DNA from: a virus
UHGV virus genome: UHGV-0281862
Strand: one strand, 5' to 3'
Length of the DNA stretch: 10,630 bases
The position numbers and the translations under genes are program-made. Positions 3,069-7,020 of the stretch are shown piece after piece. Each line of letters opens with the position of its first letter. Position 1 is the stretch's first letter. The notes under the pieces are model-generated. The model was not told the origin of the DNA, ran no database searches, and worked only from the letters and a program-made list of their open reading frames with translations.

Positions 3069-4064
3069 GTGACCGTGAGAGCGCTACTGACCCCTGAAAT
3101 TGCCCCGCGTATGGGGATCGTATTGTTCAGGCCCGGTTCAGAGCTGATGCCCCTGTTTATGCAGGGGCGTGTCCTGCTGGAGCCTGAGCCGGAACGTTAT
3201 TCATCTTTCGCCAGTGGTGCCGTTCCGGCGGCATCACAACCGCTGGCGGATGATCCTGCCGTTCGGGCCGTGTTCCGCAATGAGGCAGTGATTCGTCGTG
3301 CTGGTGGAGTGGAATGTCTTGAACGCTGGTTACTTCGTGAAAAAGGTTGCCAGTGGCCTCATTCCGACTGGCACAGCGAGAACATGACCACAATGCGACA
3401 CGCTCCGGGCGCAATCCGTCTGTGCTGGCACTGCGATAACCAGCTGCGCGATCAGTTCACGGAACGGCTGGAATCAATGGCAACGGATAACTGTACCCGC
3501 TGGGTGTTGTCTGTTGTGCGTCGGGATCTCGGTTTTGATGACAGTCACGTTGTGACAATGCCGGAACTGTGCTGGTGGCTGATTCGTAATGACCTGGCGG
3601 ATGCCTTACCGGAAAGTGCAGCCCGTAAGGCACTGAGATTACCGAAGCCTGTTGTGCCGTCTGTCACCCGGGAAAGTGACCTTGTGCCTTCGGTTCCTGC
3701 CACCAGCATCATCCAGGATAAAGCGAAAAAGGTGCTGGCGCTGAAAGTGGATCCGGAGTCGCCGGAGTCTTTTATGTTACGCCCAAAACGTCGCCGCTGG
3801 GTTAATGAAAAGTACACGCGCTGGGTTAAGACACAGCCGTGTGCATGTTGTGGAAAGCCCGCTGATGATCCCCACCACCTGATAGGCCACGGTCAGTGTG
3901 GAATGGGTACAAAAGCGCATGACCTTTTTGTGTTGCCTTTGTGCAGAAAGCATCACGACGAGCTGCATGCGGATACCGTGGCATTTGAAGAGAAGTATGG
4001 CTCTCAGCTGGAGCTGATATTTCGTTTTATCGATCGTGCGCTGGCAATTGGCGTACTGGCGTAA
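3069..4064 (+). CDS. DUF968-like prophage protein (YdfU-like) with C-terminal Cys/His HNH-like zinc-finger motif
   Basis: 331-aa ORF directly upstream of the Q-like gene, the position YdfU holds in the K-12 Qin prophage. C-terminal motif CACCGKPADDPHHL...CRKHHDELH resembles an HNH/zinc-binding fold. The start is uncertain (GTG 3069, GTG 3075 or ATG 3111; none has a good RBS). Confidence 0.6.
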   Translation: MTVRALLTPEIAPRMGIVLFRPGSELMPLFMQGRVLLEPEPERYSSFASGAVPAASQPLADDPAVRAVFRNEAVIRRAGGVECLERWLLREKGCQWPHSDWHSENMTTMRHAPGAIRLCWHCDNQLRDQFTERLESMATDNCTRWVLSVVRRDLGFDDSHVVTMPELCWWLIRNDLADALPESAARKALRLPKPVVPSVTRESDLVPSVPATSIIQDKAKKVLALKVDPESPESFMLRPKRRRWVNEKYTRWVKTQPCACCGKPADDPHHLIGHGQCGMGTKAHDLFVLPLCRKHHDELHADTVAFEEKYGSQLELIFRFIDRALAIGVLA

Positions 4065-4077
4065 GTGGAGAACGAGC

Positions 4078-4830
4078 ATGAACCTTGAAGCCTTACCGAA
4101 ATATTACTCCCCGAAATCTCCAAAACTGAGCGATGACGCACCGGCGACAGGCTCTGGTGGTTTAACAATTACGGATGTGATGGCTGCGCAGGGGATGGTG
4201 CAGTCAAAAGCACCGCTTGGGTTTGCTTTATTCCTGGCAAAAGTTGGTGTTCAGGATCCTCAGTTTGCGATTGAAGGTCTGCTCAATTACGCGATGGCAC
4301 TGGATAACCCGACATTGAATAAATTGAGTGAAGAAACCCGGCTACAGATCATTCCTTACCTTGTGAATTTTGCCTTTGCTGATTATTCCAGGTCTGCGGC
4401 AAGTAAGGCTCGCTGTGAGCATTGTGCTGGTACTGGATTTCATAATGTATTGCGCGAGGTGGTGAAACACTCCAGAAGCGGGGAATCTGTTATTAAGGAA
4501 GAGTGGGTGAAGGAACTATGTCAGCATTGTCATGGTAAGGGAGAAGTCAGCACAGCATGCAGAGGGTGCAAGGGTAAAGGTATTGTCCTGGATGAAAAAA
4601 GAACCCGGCTTCATGGCACGCCTGTTTATAAGGTTTGTGGGCGTTGCAATGGAAACCGGTTTAGCCGTTTACCAACCACACTGGCGCGGCTTCATGTCCA
4701 GAAGCTGGTACCAGACCTGACGGATTATCAGTGGTACAAAGGATATGCAGATGTCATTGATAAACTGGTTACAAAGTGCTGGCAGGAAGAAGCATATGCA
4801 GAGATACAATTGAGAAAGGTGACAAGATAA
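4078..4830 (+). CDS. late-gene antitermination protein Q-like (QuuQ/YdfT-like)
   Basis: 250 aa from ATG 4078 (GGAGA 8 nt upstream; the track's 4036 start lies inside the upstream gene). Sits immediately upstream of a promoter plus lambda-like pause element plus intrinsic terminator, the arrangement expected for Q. Has several CxxC pairs (CEHCAGTG, CQHCHGKG, CRGCKGKG, CGRCNG) consistent with a zinc-binding antiterminator. Length matches the K-12 Qin protein. Confidence 0.65.
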   Translation: MNLEALPKYYSPKSPKLSDDAPATGSGGLTITDVMAAQGMVQSKAPLGFALFLAKVGVQDPQFAIEGLLNYAMALDNPTLNKLSEETRLQIIPYLVNFAFADYSRSAASKARCEHCAGTGFHNVLREVVKHSRSGESVIKEEWVKELCQHCHGKGEVSTACRGCKGKGIVLDEKRTRLHGTPVYKVCGRCNGNRFSRLPTTLARLHVQKLVPDLTDYQWYKGYADVIDKLVTKCWQEEAYAEIQLRKVTR

Positions 4831-4861
4831 ATGGTTTTCGCCGAAGATGACGACATGATGC

Positions 4862-4908
4862 TTGCATTTTTCAAAAAATATGGATAAGATTTTCCCAACG
4901 ATGGGCTT
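4862..4908 (+). promoter_or_regulatory. putative late promoter (pR'-like) with promoter-proximal pause/Q-loading element
   Basis: -35 TTGCAT (4862-4867), 17-bp spacer, -10 TAAGAT (4885-4890). Immediately downstream is CCAACGATGGG, which matches my recollection of the lambda pR' initial transcribed region (CAACGATGGG) that induces the sigma70-dependent pause where Q engages RNA polymerase. Confidence 0.45.
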
Positions 4909-4936
4909 TGTATGTCTACCGTTGATAAGATTTAAG

Positions 4937-4961
4937 AACCCGCCGATGCGCGGGTTTTTTT
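4937..4961 (+). terminator. intrinsic terminator (tR'-like), ends a short late-leader transcript
   Basis: AACCCGC-CGATGC-GCGGGTT hairpin followed by a run of seven T; lies about 50-70 nt downstream of the putative pR' start. Confidence 0.6.
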
Positions 4962-5141
4962 GTACCCAGAATCCTGTGAGCTATACGGAAAGTACACAGA
5001 AAGGAAGGTGCGACCACAATTAATAACAAAATCTTAAAAATTGCACATGGCACTATTAGTTTACTAAATATTGTGTATTTTTTGTATTGCAGGATGACCC
5101 TGTAACGAAGTTTGCGTAACAGCATTTTGCTCTACGAGTTT

Positions 5142-5170
5142 GCCAGCCTCCCCCAGTGGCTGGCTTTTTT
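5142..5170 (+). terminator. intrinsic terminator
   Basis: GCCAGCC-tcccccagt-GGCTGGC hairpin followed by TTTTTT. Confidence 0.5.
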
Positions 5171-5172
5171 AT

Positions 5173-5292
5173 GTCTGTAGCGTCAAAGCAGCAATGTCGC
5201 TGGGGCGTCGTGCAATTGGCGTTGAGCTGGAGACTGAACGTTTTGAGCAGACGGTCAGGGAAGTTCAGGATTTAGTCAGTCAGAACGGATGA
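5173..5292 (+). pseudogene. possible C-terminal remnant of a DNA methyltransferase (no start codon or N-terminus)
   Basis: Open frame translating ...VCSVKAAMSLGRRAIGVELETERFEQTVREVQDLVSQNG*, resembling the C-terminal AdoMet-binding region of beta-class methyltransferases (...A..LGRR.IGIE...). It begins right after a terminator with no upstream coding sequence. Low certainty. Confidence 0.3.
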
Positions 5293-5332
5293 TATTGCAG
5301 GATTAGTTACGTACCGTTATTATCCTGCGCCC

Positions 5333-5408
5333 GGCCCTTTAGCTCAGTGGTGAGAGCGAGCGACTCATAATCGCCAGGTCGCTGGTTCAAATCCAGCAAG
5401 GGCCACCA
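5333..5408 (+). tRNA. ileZ: tRNA-Ile2-like, anticodon CAU (Met cannot be excluded from the anticodon alone)
   Basis: 76 nt with a manually folded cloverleaf: acceptor GGCCCTT/AAGGGCC, D-arm GCTC-AGTGGTGA-GAGC, anticodon loop CTCATAA (CAT), T-arm GCTGG-TTCAAAT-CCAGC, 3' ACCA. Closely resembles E. coli ileX-type tRNA. Confidence 0.8.
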
Positions 5409-5417
5409 TATCACATA

Positions 5418-5494
5418 CCGCCATTAGCTCATCGGGATAGAGCGTCAGCCTTCGAAGCTGGCTGTGCGGGGTTCAAGTCCCCGATGGCGGTCCA
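5418..5494 (+). tRNA. argN: tRNA-Arg, anticodon UCG
   Basis: 77 nt: acceptor CCGCCAT/ATGGCGG, D-arm GCTC-ATCGGGATA-GAGC, anticodon loop CTTCGAA (TCG), T-arm CGGGG-TTCAAGT-CCCCG, discriminator T, CCA. The gene symbol follows the ileZ-argN-argO trio of lambdoid/Stx phages; which Arg gene is argN and which is argO is uncertain. Confidence 0.8.
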
Positions 5495-5507
5495 TTATCA
5501 GCATCAT

Positions 5508-5584
5508 GCGTTGTTAGCTCAGCCGGACAGAGCAATTGCCTTCTAAGCAATCGGTCACTGGTTCGAATCCAGTACAACGCGCCA
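5508..5584 (+). tRNA. argO: tRNA-Arg, anticodon UCU
   Basis: 77 nt: acceptor GCGTTGT/ACAACGC, D-arm GCTC-AGCCGGACA-GAGC, anticodon loop CTTCTAA (TCT), T-arm ACTGG-TTCGAAT-CCAGT, discriminator G, CCA. Confidence 0.8.
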
Positions 5585-5599
5585 CACTTATTTTCCCTG

Positions 5600-5623
5600 G
5601 CTCGCTTTTGCGGGCTTTTTTTT
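5600..5623 (+). terminator. intrinsic terminator after the tRNA cluster
   Basis: GCTCGC-TTTT-GCGGGC hairpin (one G-U pair) followed by a run of eight T. Confidence 0.5.
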
Positions 5624-5629
5624 AAATGT

Positions 5630-5844
5630 CTCACAATTCAGGCGGTTGACTGTTGTCTGGTTTGCGGGGAGTTTGTTAAAAGAAACTGGCATGGTGAATC
5701 CCCCTGTGCGGAGGGGCAATCAGCGAGTAGGTATATGGGATAATCGCGGATTCAGGTGCTGGTACTGAATTCACCGGGAGGCACCCGGCACCATGCAATG
5801 GCACATAGCGCCACTCTCCAGCCCCTCTCCGGAGGGGCTTTTCT
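5630..5844 (+). ncRNA. candidate structured noncoding RNA module A (promoter-like box to intrinsic terminator)
   Basis: Begins CTCACAATTCAG-N4-TTGAC. Contains a conserved hairpin GCATGGTGAATCCCCCTGTGCGGAGGGGC, the conserved block CACCGGGAGGCACCCGGCACCATG, and ends in terminator GCCCCTC-TCCG-GAGGGGC-TTTTCT (5821-5844). All blocks recur in module B at 6098-6328 with divergent spacers. No conserved ORF. Confidence 0.35.
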
Positions 5845-6032
5845 GTGCCGGATACATCACAGTTTCTGGAACCTTAGGTACTACAGTATCAGTCAGGGTG
5901 CTATATTTTCAGATGTGATGAAAGCCTGTCAGCAGGCAGGGCGTATCGGAAATGACCCAGTAGAGAAAACGTTGACTCAGATACCGGTGCTGAGTTACCG
6001 GGAAACCGGCATCACATGACCGCTATCCTTCC

Positions 6033-6060
6033 AGGCCCATCCGCTCCGGTGGGCCTTTTT
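6033..6060 (+). terminator. intrinsic terminator between the two modules
   Basis: AGGCCCA-tccgctccgg-TGGGCCT hairpin followed by TTTTT. Confidence 0.5.
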
Positions 6061-6097
6061 ACTGCAGAAAACAGGTTCCCCGTTAAATGCTATGTTG

Positions 6098-6328
6098 CTC
6101 ACAATTCAGTAAGTTGACAGTTGCCTGTCAGACTGGGCATTTGTTAAAAAAATTTCGCATGGTGAATCCCCCTGAGCGGAGGGGCGACTGGTGACGGTAT
6201 AATCTCTGATTATCAAAACGAGAATGACGCGGGTTTAGTGGCACCGGGCTGAACTCACCGGGAGGCACCCGGCACCATGTGCATGATGATACAGATACGC
6301 GGCTTTAGCCCCTCTCCGGAGGGGTTTT
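6098..6328 (+). ncRNA. candidate structured noncoding RNA module B (paralogous to module A)
   Basis: Begins CTCACAATTCAG-N4-TTGACA. Shares TTTGTTAAAA, GCATGGTGAATCCCCCTGAGCGGAGGGGC and CACCGGGAGGCACCCGGCACCATG with module A; contains a perfect TATAAT at 6198-6203; ends in terminator CCCCTC-TCCG-GAGGGG-TTTTCTT (6309-6328). Small ORFs inside differ between copies, so protein coding is unlikely. Confidence 0.35.
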
Positions 6329-6559
6329 CTTGTGGGCAAAAAAAGCCCGCGCTGGGAGACGCGGGCGGCAAGGAATAAACAATAAAACGTGAAGTAATAT
6401 TTCAGCTGGCGAATAATACCCCATAGTAATCACTCTGCGCAACTGCGCGGTCTTTTTCGAATTGCGGGCTGTCGTCTCTCTTCTGCCATTGTCCTGTAAC
6501 TTCCGGACTTCAGCCCGCTCCTTATTTTACTCACAATATTATCCCGGCCGGGAGGATTC

Positions 6560-6787
6560 ATGGCATTTAAACACTATGACGTGGTCAGGGCGGTATCGCC
6601 GTCAGACCTTGCGAAACGACTGACACAAAAACTGAAGGAGGGCTGGCAGCCGTTTGGTAGTCCGGTGGCCATAACCCCTTATACCCTGATGCAGGCGATT
6701 GCAGCAGAAGGTGATGTGGTGGTCAGTGGTGCAACTGAGCCGGATTGGTACTACGTCATCGTACTGGCCCGGCATTCCAGGCCATAA
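6560..6787 (+). CDS. DUF1737-like small protein (stand-alone; possibly the N-terminal remnant of a NanS-p/YjhS-type esterase gene)
   Basis: 75 aa; RBS GGGAGG 5 nt upstream of ATG 6560. The protein resembles the N-terminal domain found on prophage 9-O-acetylesterases, which sit just upstream of the lysis genes in Stx and related phages. No esterase domain follows. Confidence 0.55.
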   Translation: MAFKHYDVVRAVSPSDLAKRLTQKLKEGWQPFGSPVAITPYTLMQAIAAEGDVVVSGATEPDWYYVIVLARHSRP

Positions 6788-6991
6788 AAGACAGTCTGGC
6801 AGTGGGACTAAATGCACTGACGCTGATGGATATTACCAAAAATGTAACGTATGGCGTTGAGATAGAAAGTCTGGCGCTGGAGATAAATGCACCGGCATCA
6901 TCATAAAAAGTGAGCCAGTCAAATGGAAGGTATCGTTAAACTCACCGGTAGTGTCAGTGGGTCGTCTGAGACGCTTGCATGAGTTATCAGA

Positions 6992-7020
6992 GCCATCAGT
7001 AGTTAACTGGTGGCTTTTTT
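6992..7020 (+). terminator. intrinsic terminator immediately upstream of the holin gene
   Basis: GCCATCAG-tagttaa-CTGGTGGC hairpin (one G-U pair) followed by TTTTTT. It lies inside the longest version of the holin ORF, which argues for the downstream start at 7056. Confidence 0.5.

Follow-up and report, generated by a model that had tools for sequence, protein, structure and literature searches.

The moron slot of lambdoid phages is the site downstream of the late promoter pR′ where these phages carry inserted cargo genes. STnc100, also described as EcOnc27 in Escherichia coli O157 Sakai and as sRNA103 in EDL933, belongs to a family of small RNAs (sRNAs) that is already catalogued in Rfam and in the literature on enterohemorrhagic and enteropathogenic E. 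coli (EHEC and EPEC), is among the most abundant sRNA annotations in enterobacterial genomes, and adjoins the Shiga toxin gene stx2. Pairs of sRNAs on opposite strands have been reported from the moron site 3′ of pR′, the pair of the Sakai prophage Sp5 being EcOnc27 and AsxR (EcOnc02) (Tree et al., PMC4104026). On Northern blots EcOnc27 gives bands of ~235/247 nucleotides (nt), the longer of which is destabilized in an hfq deletion strain (PMC4104026). Transcriptome reads were obtained for each of the 11 STnc100 copies listed in EDL933, one of which was also verified on a Northern blot (PMC5331693), and over-expression of sRNA103 raises fimZ and espA transcripts. In EPEC, PasD1 and PasD2 are among the sRNA candidates with the most interactions by RIL-seq, the ligation and sequencing of interacting RNAs (PMC8550237), and a 2026 preprint concluded that PasD and STnc100 share a common ancestry (bioRxiv 10.64898/2026.05.13.724894). 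Here, we analyzed the 10,630-nt virus genome UHGV-0281862 (the window), in which positions 5630-6404 occupy the moron slot of a lambdoid prophage of the type found in extraintestinal pathogenic E. coli (ExPEC). We consider it likely that this segment is an sRNA cluster, with three STnc100-family genes on the + strand and one gene on the opposite strand, that acts as proposed below. The identity of the modules is not new; the features that were not described in the literature searched are a pseudoknot with covariation, a promoter conserved in position, and a third copy that lacks annotation.

The initial annotation of this locus, made from the letters alone, recognized two modules (5630-5844 and 6098-6328) and read them as structured, terminator-capped prophage sRNA genes rather than protein genes. 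The modules are diverged direct repeats: an alignment of 5620-5850 with 6088-6335 gave 82% mean column identity over 250 columns, and a repeat search recovered an 88-nt repeat (5630-5717/6098-6185, 80%), a 31-nt repeat (5765-5795/6249-6279, 97%) and a repeated terminator. The covariance-model search that the annotation had recommended placed both modules in Rfam family RF02076 (STnc100), with scores far above the curated gathering score of 47 bits. Unit 1 (5660-5850, + strand) scored 136.3 bits and unit 3 (6128-6337, + strand) 161 bits, each over the full length of the model (positions 1-206 of 206). R1, our own covariance model built on the STnc100 core, gave 108.3 bits for unit 1 and 106.2 bits for unit 3, and unit 1 is an exact match to the STnc100 primers for quantitative PCR published in PMC12370729. 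It is essentially certain that units 1 and 3 belong to STnc100. The terminators proposed for the two modules were likewise called as intrinsic-terminator-like by a consensus scan, at 5820-5839 and 6307-6326; the same scan found 10 terminator-like sites in 4800-7000, compared with 1.8 expected. The two units and their predicted folds are as follows.

5660-5850, + strand: STnc100 copy 1 (unit 1), Rfam extent; core 5687-5799
5689-5696/5789-5796, + strand: closing helix of unit 1, from folding
5701-5705/5712-5716, + strand: hairpin 1 of unit 1, from folding
5748-5755/5765-5772, + strand: hairpin 3 of unit 1, from folding
5774-5788, + strand: hairpin 4 of unit 1, from folding
5797-5819, + strand: variable linker of unit 1
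5820-5839, + strand: terminator of unit 1, followed by a U tract
6128-6337, + strand: STnc100 copy 2 (unit 3), Rfam extent; core 6155-6283
6157-6164/6273-6280, + strand: closing helix of unit 3, from folding
6231-6238/6249-6256, + strand: hairpin 3 of unit 3, from folding
6258-6272, + strand: hairpin 4 of unit 3, from folding
6281-6306, + strand: linker of unit 3
6307-6326, + strand: terminator of unit 3, followed by a U tract

All copies in the window, including the third one described below, have the same fold, in which hairpins 1, 3 and 4 lie within a closing helix and a terminator follows. GCATGGTG in the third conserved block and CACCATG in the fourth do not belong to local hairpins; they pair with each other as one long-range closing helix that encloses all the sequence between them. 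Compensatory changes at homologous loci, a check also put forward in the annotation, were found in two alignments. In a MAFFT alignment of 29 diverse cores, which is not fitted to structure, 82.5% of cells pair, compared with 40-48% when the partners are slid, and 17 of 32 pairs show changes on both sides. In a model-fitted alignment of 135 distinct Enterobacterales sequences the proportion is 90.8%, compared with 41-48% for slid partners, with both-sided changes in 23 of 26 pairs; since fitting to the model biases an alignment in favor of the structure, this pairing figure is less independent than the MAFFT figure. Covariation is heavy in the closing helix and in hairpin 3. The sequences of hairpins 1 and 4 hardly vary, in part because both served as search patterns.

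These substitutions bear on whether the modules could be decayed gene remnants, or small-protein genes on either strand. Short open reading frames (ORFs) do exist, of 25 and 11 amino acids (aa) on the + strand and of 42-46 aa on the − strand; the former two open at the same ATG in modules 1 and 2, as had been claimed. In addition, the Prokaryotic Genome Annotation Pipeline lists for UTI89 a pseudogene fragment antisense to unit 1 and, antisense to PasD1, a hypothetical protein. However, a Pfam search with five ORFs of the modules, from both strands, gave no match, the shared ATG becomes GTG, TTG or other triplets among relatives, and indels of 1-2 nt break every frame. The helix substitutions are compensatory rather than codon-like in both the MAFFT and the model-fitted alignments, so that neither codon-like conservation nor a lack of covariation in the stems, the outcomes named at the outset as contrary evidence, was seen. 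A coding role is thus poorly supported, and we regard it as very improbable. The reading as structured sRNA genes also fits the homologues, which have been detected experimentally and found bound to Hfq (PMC4104026, PMC5331693, PMC8550237).

The core has a further predicted pairing, a pseudoknot between the nucleotides after hairpin 1 and the loop of hairpin 3, which is kept in all three window copies.

5719-5725 with 5757-5763, + strand: pseudoknot of unit 1
5944-5949 with 5984-5989, + strand: pseudoknot of the middle unit
6188-6193 with 6242-6247, + strand: pseudoknot of unit 3

In all subgroups, 6-10 nt directly 3′ of hairpin 1 are complementary to the hairpin 3 loop, and the sequences involved differ: AUCAGC/GCUGGU, CCAGUC/GACUGG, CUGGUG/CACCGG, UCCAGCA/UGCUGGA, AAUGAC/GUCAUU, ACUGGAUA/UAUCCAGU and UGCGGC/GCCGCA, with AAUGAUC/GAUCAUU in PasD. 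A register-free test was applied to the distinct versions of the two strands. Among the 30 versions of the phage set, cognate partners share on average a run of 7.3 nt at −10.9 kcal, compared with 4.8 nt at −5.5 kcal for non-cognate partners; among the 119 versions of the Enterobacterales set, the values are 6.1 nt at −7.7 kcal and 4.3 nt at −3.8 kcal, and runs of at least 6 nt occur in 70% of cognate but 16% of non-cognate pairs. The Mann-Whitney p-values are tiny, yet they are not true probabilities, as the sequences are related; what carries the argument is how many distinct versions there are. Because variants differ in register, counting by fixed columns of the MAFFT alignment gives only 36.6% paired cells. 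Conservation of the covarying pseudoknot extends over STnc100, PasD and the middle copy, in more than 100 sequence versions. It is absent from the structure line of the Rfam STnc100 match, and the word “pseudoknot” was not found in the preprint on the Pas sRNAs and STnc100 (bioRxiv 10.64898/2026.05.13.724894).

The middle copy was not recognized in the initial annotation, which counted two modules only; this third related unit lies between them.

5889-6062, + strand: diverged STnc100-like unit (middle unit), core 5911-6020; sub-threshold Rfam match, same fold
5899-5907, + strand: predicted promoter element of the middle unit, extended −10 TGCTATATT
5913-5920/6010-6017, + strand: closing helix of the middle unit
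5925-5936, + strand: hairpin 1 of the middle unit
5974-5980/5990-5996, + strand: hairpin 3 of the middle unit
5998-6009, + strand: hairpin 4 of the middle unit (GAAA loop)
6033-6056, + strand: terminator of the middle unit, followed by a T run; from the consensus scan

In a permissive Rfam scan the middle unit matched RF02076 over its full length with 30.1 bits (E 4e-5), below the 47-bit threshold, and it scored 46.8 bits (E 3e-9) against R1, comparable to PasD (49.3 bits). The architecture is shared, and every helix differs in sequence: AUGUGAUG/CAUCACAU, CCUGUC/GGCAGG, GACUCAG/CUGAGUU and CCGG-GAAA-CCGG. The unit was found in 673 of the 5426 complete E. coli genomes (12%), in none of which it carries an annotation. 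There are two alleles, one in 347 genomes at ≥99% identity and the other in 327 at ~91%. Between them, a C-G pair of hairpin 1 is exchanged for U-A, and a change in the loop replaces a U-G pair of the pseudoknot by U-A. The middle unit is not decaying.

Relatives of these units were collected by an exact-pattern scan of IMG/VR, which gave 120 phage loci and 41 clusters of units below 92% identity, and by a scan of species-representative genomes, which gave 120 further loci. Most of the named records are Enterobacterales, with Escherichia, Shigella, Salmonella, Citrobacter, Klebsiella, Enterobacter, Kosakonia, Raoultella, Pantoea, Erwinia and Rahnella among the genera. At least two cores are present in 15 of the 120 phage loci, six of which have the exact three-unit layout of the window and three a variant of it; one phage locus holds four cores. 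Each of the two outer alleles (units 1 and 3) is also found singly in other phages, which favors assembly of the array by module recombination over recent duplication. The numbers are higher in other genera, with five or six cores per 8-kb locus in the Pantoea sp. App145 plasmid, Ca. Pantoea formicae, P. rodasii and Ca. P. communis, four in Citrobacter braakii and three to five in Superficieibacter (array loci L168 947-1990 (− strand), L157, L214 4135-5928 (− strand), L198, L208, L213, L166 and L167). In the Pantoea locus L214, the array is flanked by NinG and a candidate Q gene on one side and by the lysozyme gene on the other. In the Pantoea plasmid locus L168, three cores 8 and ~30 nt apart have one linker and terminator in common, and the core is there a repeated domain within one transcript; some cores lie only ~8-20 nt apart with one shared terminator, and co-transcription is therefore required. 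Across Enterobacterales, the slot that separates Q from the lysis genes repeatedly holds arrays of two to six cores.

We propose that each STnc100 unit of the window is an autonomous transcription unit of four parts. An extended −10 sigma-70 promoter would start transcription at or just ahead of the closing helix. It is followed by a core of ~110-130 nt, in which the closing helix surrounds hairpin 1, a variable insert and hairpins 3 and 4, and in which 6-7 nt after hairpin 1 pair with the hairpin 3 loop as a pseudoknot. The third part is a hypervariable single-stranded 3′ linker of 14-27 nt, and the fourth an intrinsic terminator, rich in GC and ending in a U tail. As in characterized relatives, the linker and terminator would form the Hfq-binding, target-pairing end, so that three different linkers would address three different target sets. 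In the lysogen the RNAs would be made from their own promoters; once the prophage is induced, none of the terminators would stop RNA polymerase modified by Q. All three units are likely independently transcribed sRNA genes. That they bind Hfq and act in trans by base pairing through a seed in the variable 3′ linker is suggested by analogy with EcOnc27 and PasD, and we put the chance of such trans action at somewhat better than even. Since the three units have three different 3′ linkers, the ExPEC array would be a natural experiment on seed diversification.

The row of terminators could also be read in another way, in which the units act mainly in cis, as a terminator or insulator stack or as RNA-stability elements that keep the lysis genes silent until Q-modified polymerase reads through, and the RNAs are by-products. 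In series between pR′ and the holin gene lie no fewer than five + strand intrinsic terminators, namely tR′, that of the tRNA trio and one for each unit, and different genera keep the same slot between Q and the lysis genes. A terminator, however, requires neither a covarying 110-nt pseudoknotted core nor a promoter of its own, homologues accumulate as discrete Hfq-bound RNAs in uninduced lysogens, and in Stx phages one copy sits downstream of stx rather than upstream. The cis-insulator role is therefore poorly supported and, in our estimate, improbable.

Several points weigh against the proposal of trans-acting sRNA genes itself. The expression and Hfq evidence comes from homologues in other prophages (EcOnc27, EDL933 and PasD). 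The reported STnc100 effects are limited to changes of fimZ and espA on over-expression. The sequences conserved in hairpins 1 and 4 are lost in the middle unit. A strict sigma-70 consensus scan found no + strand promoter ahead of any unit, and the Northern bands of EcOnc27 from Sp5 (~235/247 nt) exceed the expected ~180 nt by ~55-65 nt (PMC4104026). Furthermore, the conservation of hairpins 1 and 4, the pseudoknot and the close-set multi-core transcripts of Pantoea exceed what a passive seed scaffold would need.

This last point leads to a possibility that we hold to be unlikely, although less so than the coding and cis-acting roles, namely that the conserved pseudoknotted core is the functional entity (a decoy or sponge for a host or phage protein, or a processed tRNA-like unit) and that the linker and terminator are secondary. 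Tandem copies would then raise the dose of the core instead of diversifying seeds, and the ~115-nt four-helix pseudoknotted core of STnc100, PasD and the middle copy might be an autonomous RNA domain, carried by lambdoid phages of many Enterobacterales one to six times per array between the antiterminator and lysis genes, with the Hfq-bound 3′ seed as only a part of its biology. Such a role would agree with the near invariance of hairpins 1 and 4 next to free covariation in the closing helix and hairpin 3, with the retention of the pseudoknot in >100 sequence versions, and with the arrays of three to six cores in Pantoea, Citrobacter and Superficieibacter, some of them co-transcribed ~8-20 nt apart; these multi-core arrays in other genera hint at a core activity beyond seed carriage. 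Hairpin 4 also directly adjoins the closing helix at its 3′ strand, without an intervening nucleotide, like the T arm on a tRNA acceptor stem. On the other hand, the signals from Hfq cross-linking and cDNA analysis (Hfq-CRAC) and from RIL-seq in the studied relatives map to the 3′ linker and terminator. The Hfq-CRAC peak of EcOnc27, for instance, ends 4 nt ahead of the AsxR peak (PMC4104026), a position that places it over the closing helix (3′ strand), linker and terminator. ARAGORN calls no core as a tRNA or transfer-messenger RNA and finds only the three true tRNAs in the window, the middle window copy keeps the shape while losing the conserved loop sequences, and every window copy has its own terminator. 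Moreover, no protein partner of the core is known to us.

With respect to transcription of the units as separate sRNA genes, the strict scan misses the promoters because TAAAAG/A lacks the final T of the −10 hexamer. Since that scan was empty, the promoter model is based on conservation of position among relatives, together with the 5′ ends of PasD2 from RIL-seq. When the 41 clusters are anchored on the closing helix, a TTGnnn element (TTGTCT, TTGCCT, TTGACA, TTGAAA or TTGATT) is followed after 17-18 nt, usually with TGT, by TAAAAG, TAAAAA or TAAATT, and this −10 element ends 7-10 nt 5′ of TGGTG in nearly all 41 clusters. The conserved extended −10 is TGTTAAAAG/A. The 5′ 29 positions of the Rfam STnc100 model cover what is here read as promoter. 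The corresponding predictions for the outer units are given below.

5630-5651, + strand: upstream conserved block of unit 1, CTCACAATTCAG-N4-TTGACT, from alignment and repeat search; 5′ of the predicted −35
5653-5682, + strand: predicted sigma-70 promoter of unit 1; −35 TTGTCT at 5653-5658, 18-nt spacer, extended −10 TGTTAAAAG at 5674-5682
near 5689-5690, + strand: predicted start of unit 1, from positional conservation
6098-6119, + strand: upstream conserved block of unit 3, CTCACAATTCAG-N4-TTGACA, from alignment and repeat search
6121-6150, + strand: predicted promoter of unit 3; −35 TTGCCT at 6121-6126, 18-nt spacer, extended −10 TGTTAAAAA at 6142-6150
near 6157-6158, + strand: predicted start of unit 3, from positional conservation

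Among the RIL-seq fragments listed for PasD2, those that reach farthest 5′ begin at 741157, one nucleotide ahead of CATGGTG, which fits a transcription start at the closing helix. In Salmonella LT2, an RpoD signal at STnc100 promoters has been reported from chromatin immunoprecipitation with exonuclease digestion. The excess length on Northern blots suggests that copies of the E. coli type may have an additional start ~60 nt upstream, close to the CTCACAAT block, or may be processed from longer transcripts. The CTCACAATTCAG-N4-TTGAC block is found in the E. coli-type subgroup alone, the type with the size discrepancy, and is absent from PasD and the other subgroups. Two other candidate promoter elements were considered and not adopted. 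TTGAC(T/A) at 5646/6114 is a poor −35, as only GAGTTT or GCATTT lies 17 nt downstream and the block is missing in other subgroups; it is treated here as an upstream element. CTCACAAT as a −10 or start-site element (TATGTT/TATTTT-nCTCACAAT) has no credible −35 at its three places, and its spacing to the −10-like hexamer is inconsistent.

Variants predictive of hemolytic uremic syndrome (HUS) have been reported at +90 and +103 after stx2B (PMC12711010). By coordinate count, they fall in the predicted extended −10 and discriminator of the Sp5 STnc100 promoter (L122 3935-3952), which suggests that they could change expression of the STnc100 sRNA.

The fourth predicted gene of the cluster faces unit 3.

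6338-6404, − strand: short sRNA gene; extended −10 TGAAATATT at 6404-6396, predicted RNA from ~6390 to 6338, terminator 6366-6345 followed by U7

Terminator scan and folding predict an RNA of ~51-53 nt with a strong terminator. The element is nearly identical to the EPEC RIL-seq candidate E2348C_1409.E2348C_1408.IGR and holds the position that AsxR has in Sakai Sp5, where the STnc100 match (207.7 bits) lies 75 nt past stx2B, with AsxR next to it on the opposite strand. In phage contigs, variants of the window element occur after many STnc100 copies. Its similarity to AsxR in a pairwise alignment is confined to the terminator. The modules show no sequence relationship to AgvB or AsxR, which the annotation had mentioned as anti-sRNAs known from late regions of EHEC prophages: neither AsxR (RF02703) nor AgvB (RF02702) gave a match in 4800-7000, even at E up to 5, whereas the same Rfam search detects AsxR in Sakai at 88 bits. 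The modules were accordingly rejected as AgvB/AsxR, which are the neighbors of STnc100 on the opposite strand.

The position of the cluster between the tRNA trio and the lysis genes agrees with the tRNA predictions and with the annotation of the 100%-identical locus in UTI89.

5333-5584, + strand: tRNA trio (CAT, TCG and TCT anticodons), from ARAGORN, Rfam tRNA and the UTI89 annotation
5599-5624, + strand: intrinsic terminator after the tRNAs, stem 5599-5616 followed by a T run; shared with Sakai Sp5
6435-6565, + strand: conserved DUF1737 leader, holding the third CTCACAAT at 6530-6537; outside any sRNA module

Unit 1 begins immediately 3′ of the terminator of the tRNA trio. The segment 5590-6560 (971 bp) is 100% identical to a lambdoid prophage of UTI89, S88, IHE3034, ATCC 11775 and many ExPEC-type strains; at least 80% of it is carried by 353 of the 5426 complete E. 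coli genomes, and some match is present in 2869. The order in UTI89 is RusA, antiterminator, a small ORF, DNA methyltransferase, three tRNAs, the sRNA region, DUF1737, holin, lysozyme and lysis protein, and window 4936-5332 is 95% identical to the Q-tRNA interval of Sakai Sp5, which holds pR′ and StxS/tR′. The window is therefore a Stx-phage-like late region without stx. The location in the late region, between the antiterminator or moron slot and the lysis genes, is the same in UTI89, Sakai Sp5 and the Pantoea prophage. The Q gene of the window (4036-4830) is of a different type from that of Sp5, and 5140-5292 is a C-terminal remnant of the DNA methyltransferase gene, which is full length there in UTI89. 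ARAGORN called the first tRNA (5333-5408) tRNA-Met (CAT), whereas RefSeq annotates tRNA-Ile on the identical gene, which we take to be of the ileZ type, with CAT read as Ile after lysidine modification.

The CTCACAAT motif, proposed as a recurring module boundary, has three exact copies, all on the + strand, at 5630, 6098 and 6530, compared with a chance expectation of 0.44 per window; three copies were reached in 1 of 200 shuffles. Two of the three are part of the module repeat, and one extra 8-mer is weak evidence, close to chance. Homology between the modules starts at (C)TCACAAT, and what lies upstream of it is unrelated; the motif therefore does delimit E. coli-type modules on their left side. 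The third copy is no module edge, as it sits in the conserved leader of the DUF1737 gene, the domain of which was confirmed by Pfam search. This leader (6435-6565) is 95% identical to the DUF1737/esterase leader in Sakai Sp5 (L122 4210-4340), and the extended string CTCACAATATTATCCCGG precedes the homologous DUF1737 gene in 13 loci. CUCACA has been described as the PasD target motif; we treat the resemblance as a coincidence because no window unit carries a matching seed. A terminator-like hairpin, CTGCGCAACTGCGCGG followed by TCTTTTT, lies within the leader at 6435-6450 (+ strand), ~100 nt past the terminator of unit 3. Just 3′ of the DUF1737 ORF there is a direct repeat (6789-6817/6857-6892, + strand), the second copy of which (gagatagaaagtctggcgctggagataaatgca) matches a RIL-seq target site of the EPEC sRNA PasA (E2348C_1246/E2348C_0688); blastn found no PasA homologue in the window.

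Units 1 and 3 belong with STnc100 (EcOnc27 and sRNA103), and the locus shares with it the position after the tRNA/stx slot and before the DUF1737 and lysis genes, as well as a partner gene on the opposite strand. It differs in its three tandem units, in the absence of stx and in a middle unit that, at 30 bits, stays below the Rfam threshold. PasD1 and PasD2 of EPEC E2348/69 have the same core fold, pseudoknot, slot and promoter layout (TTGACT, 18 nt, TAAAAA), and score 38-41 bits against RF02076, unlike units 1 and 3. The predicted PasD seed UGUGAG is placed in the same 3′ linker as in STnc100-type units; TGTGAG is absent from 5630-6340, and the window linkers are unrelated to the PasD linker, so that the core alone is shared. 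The PasD copies are reported to be distal to each other, not tandem as in the window. AsxR and AgvB, RNAs of 51-60 nt that have a conserved 3′ region of ~42 nt, occupy the same moron slot as the opposite-strand half of the sRNA pair with STnc100; the window modules lie on the other strand, are about three times longer and match neither family. StxS and lambda 6S RNA, the short transcripts from pR′ to tR′, are likewise short, terminator-capped RNAs of the late region, and the window has a StxS-type pR′/tR′ segment upstream (4936-5332). Unlike these RNAs, the STnc100 units lie downstream of tR′ and the tRNAs, have their own predicted promoters and show no sequence similarity to them. Adjacent or multiple homologous sRNAs with conserved scaffolds and partly different pairing regions are also known from OmrA/OmrB, PrrF1/PrrF2 and Qrr1-5, which are core-genome regulators of ~80-110 nt without a pseudoknotted multi-helix core. 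Unlike those clusters, the window copies look assembled by recombination of phage modules.

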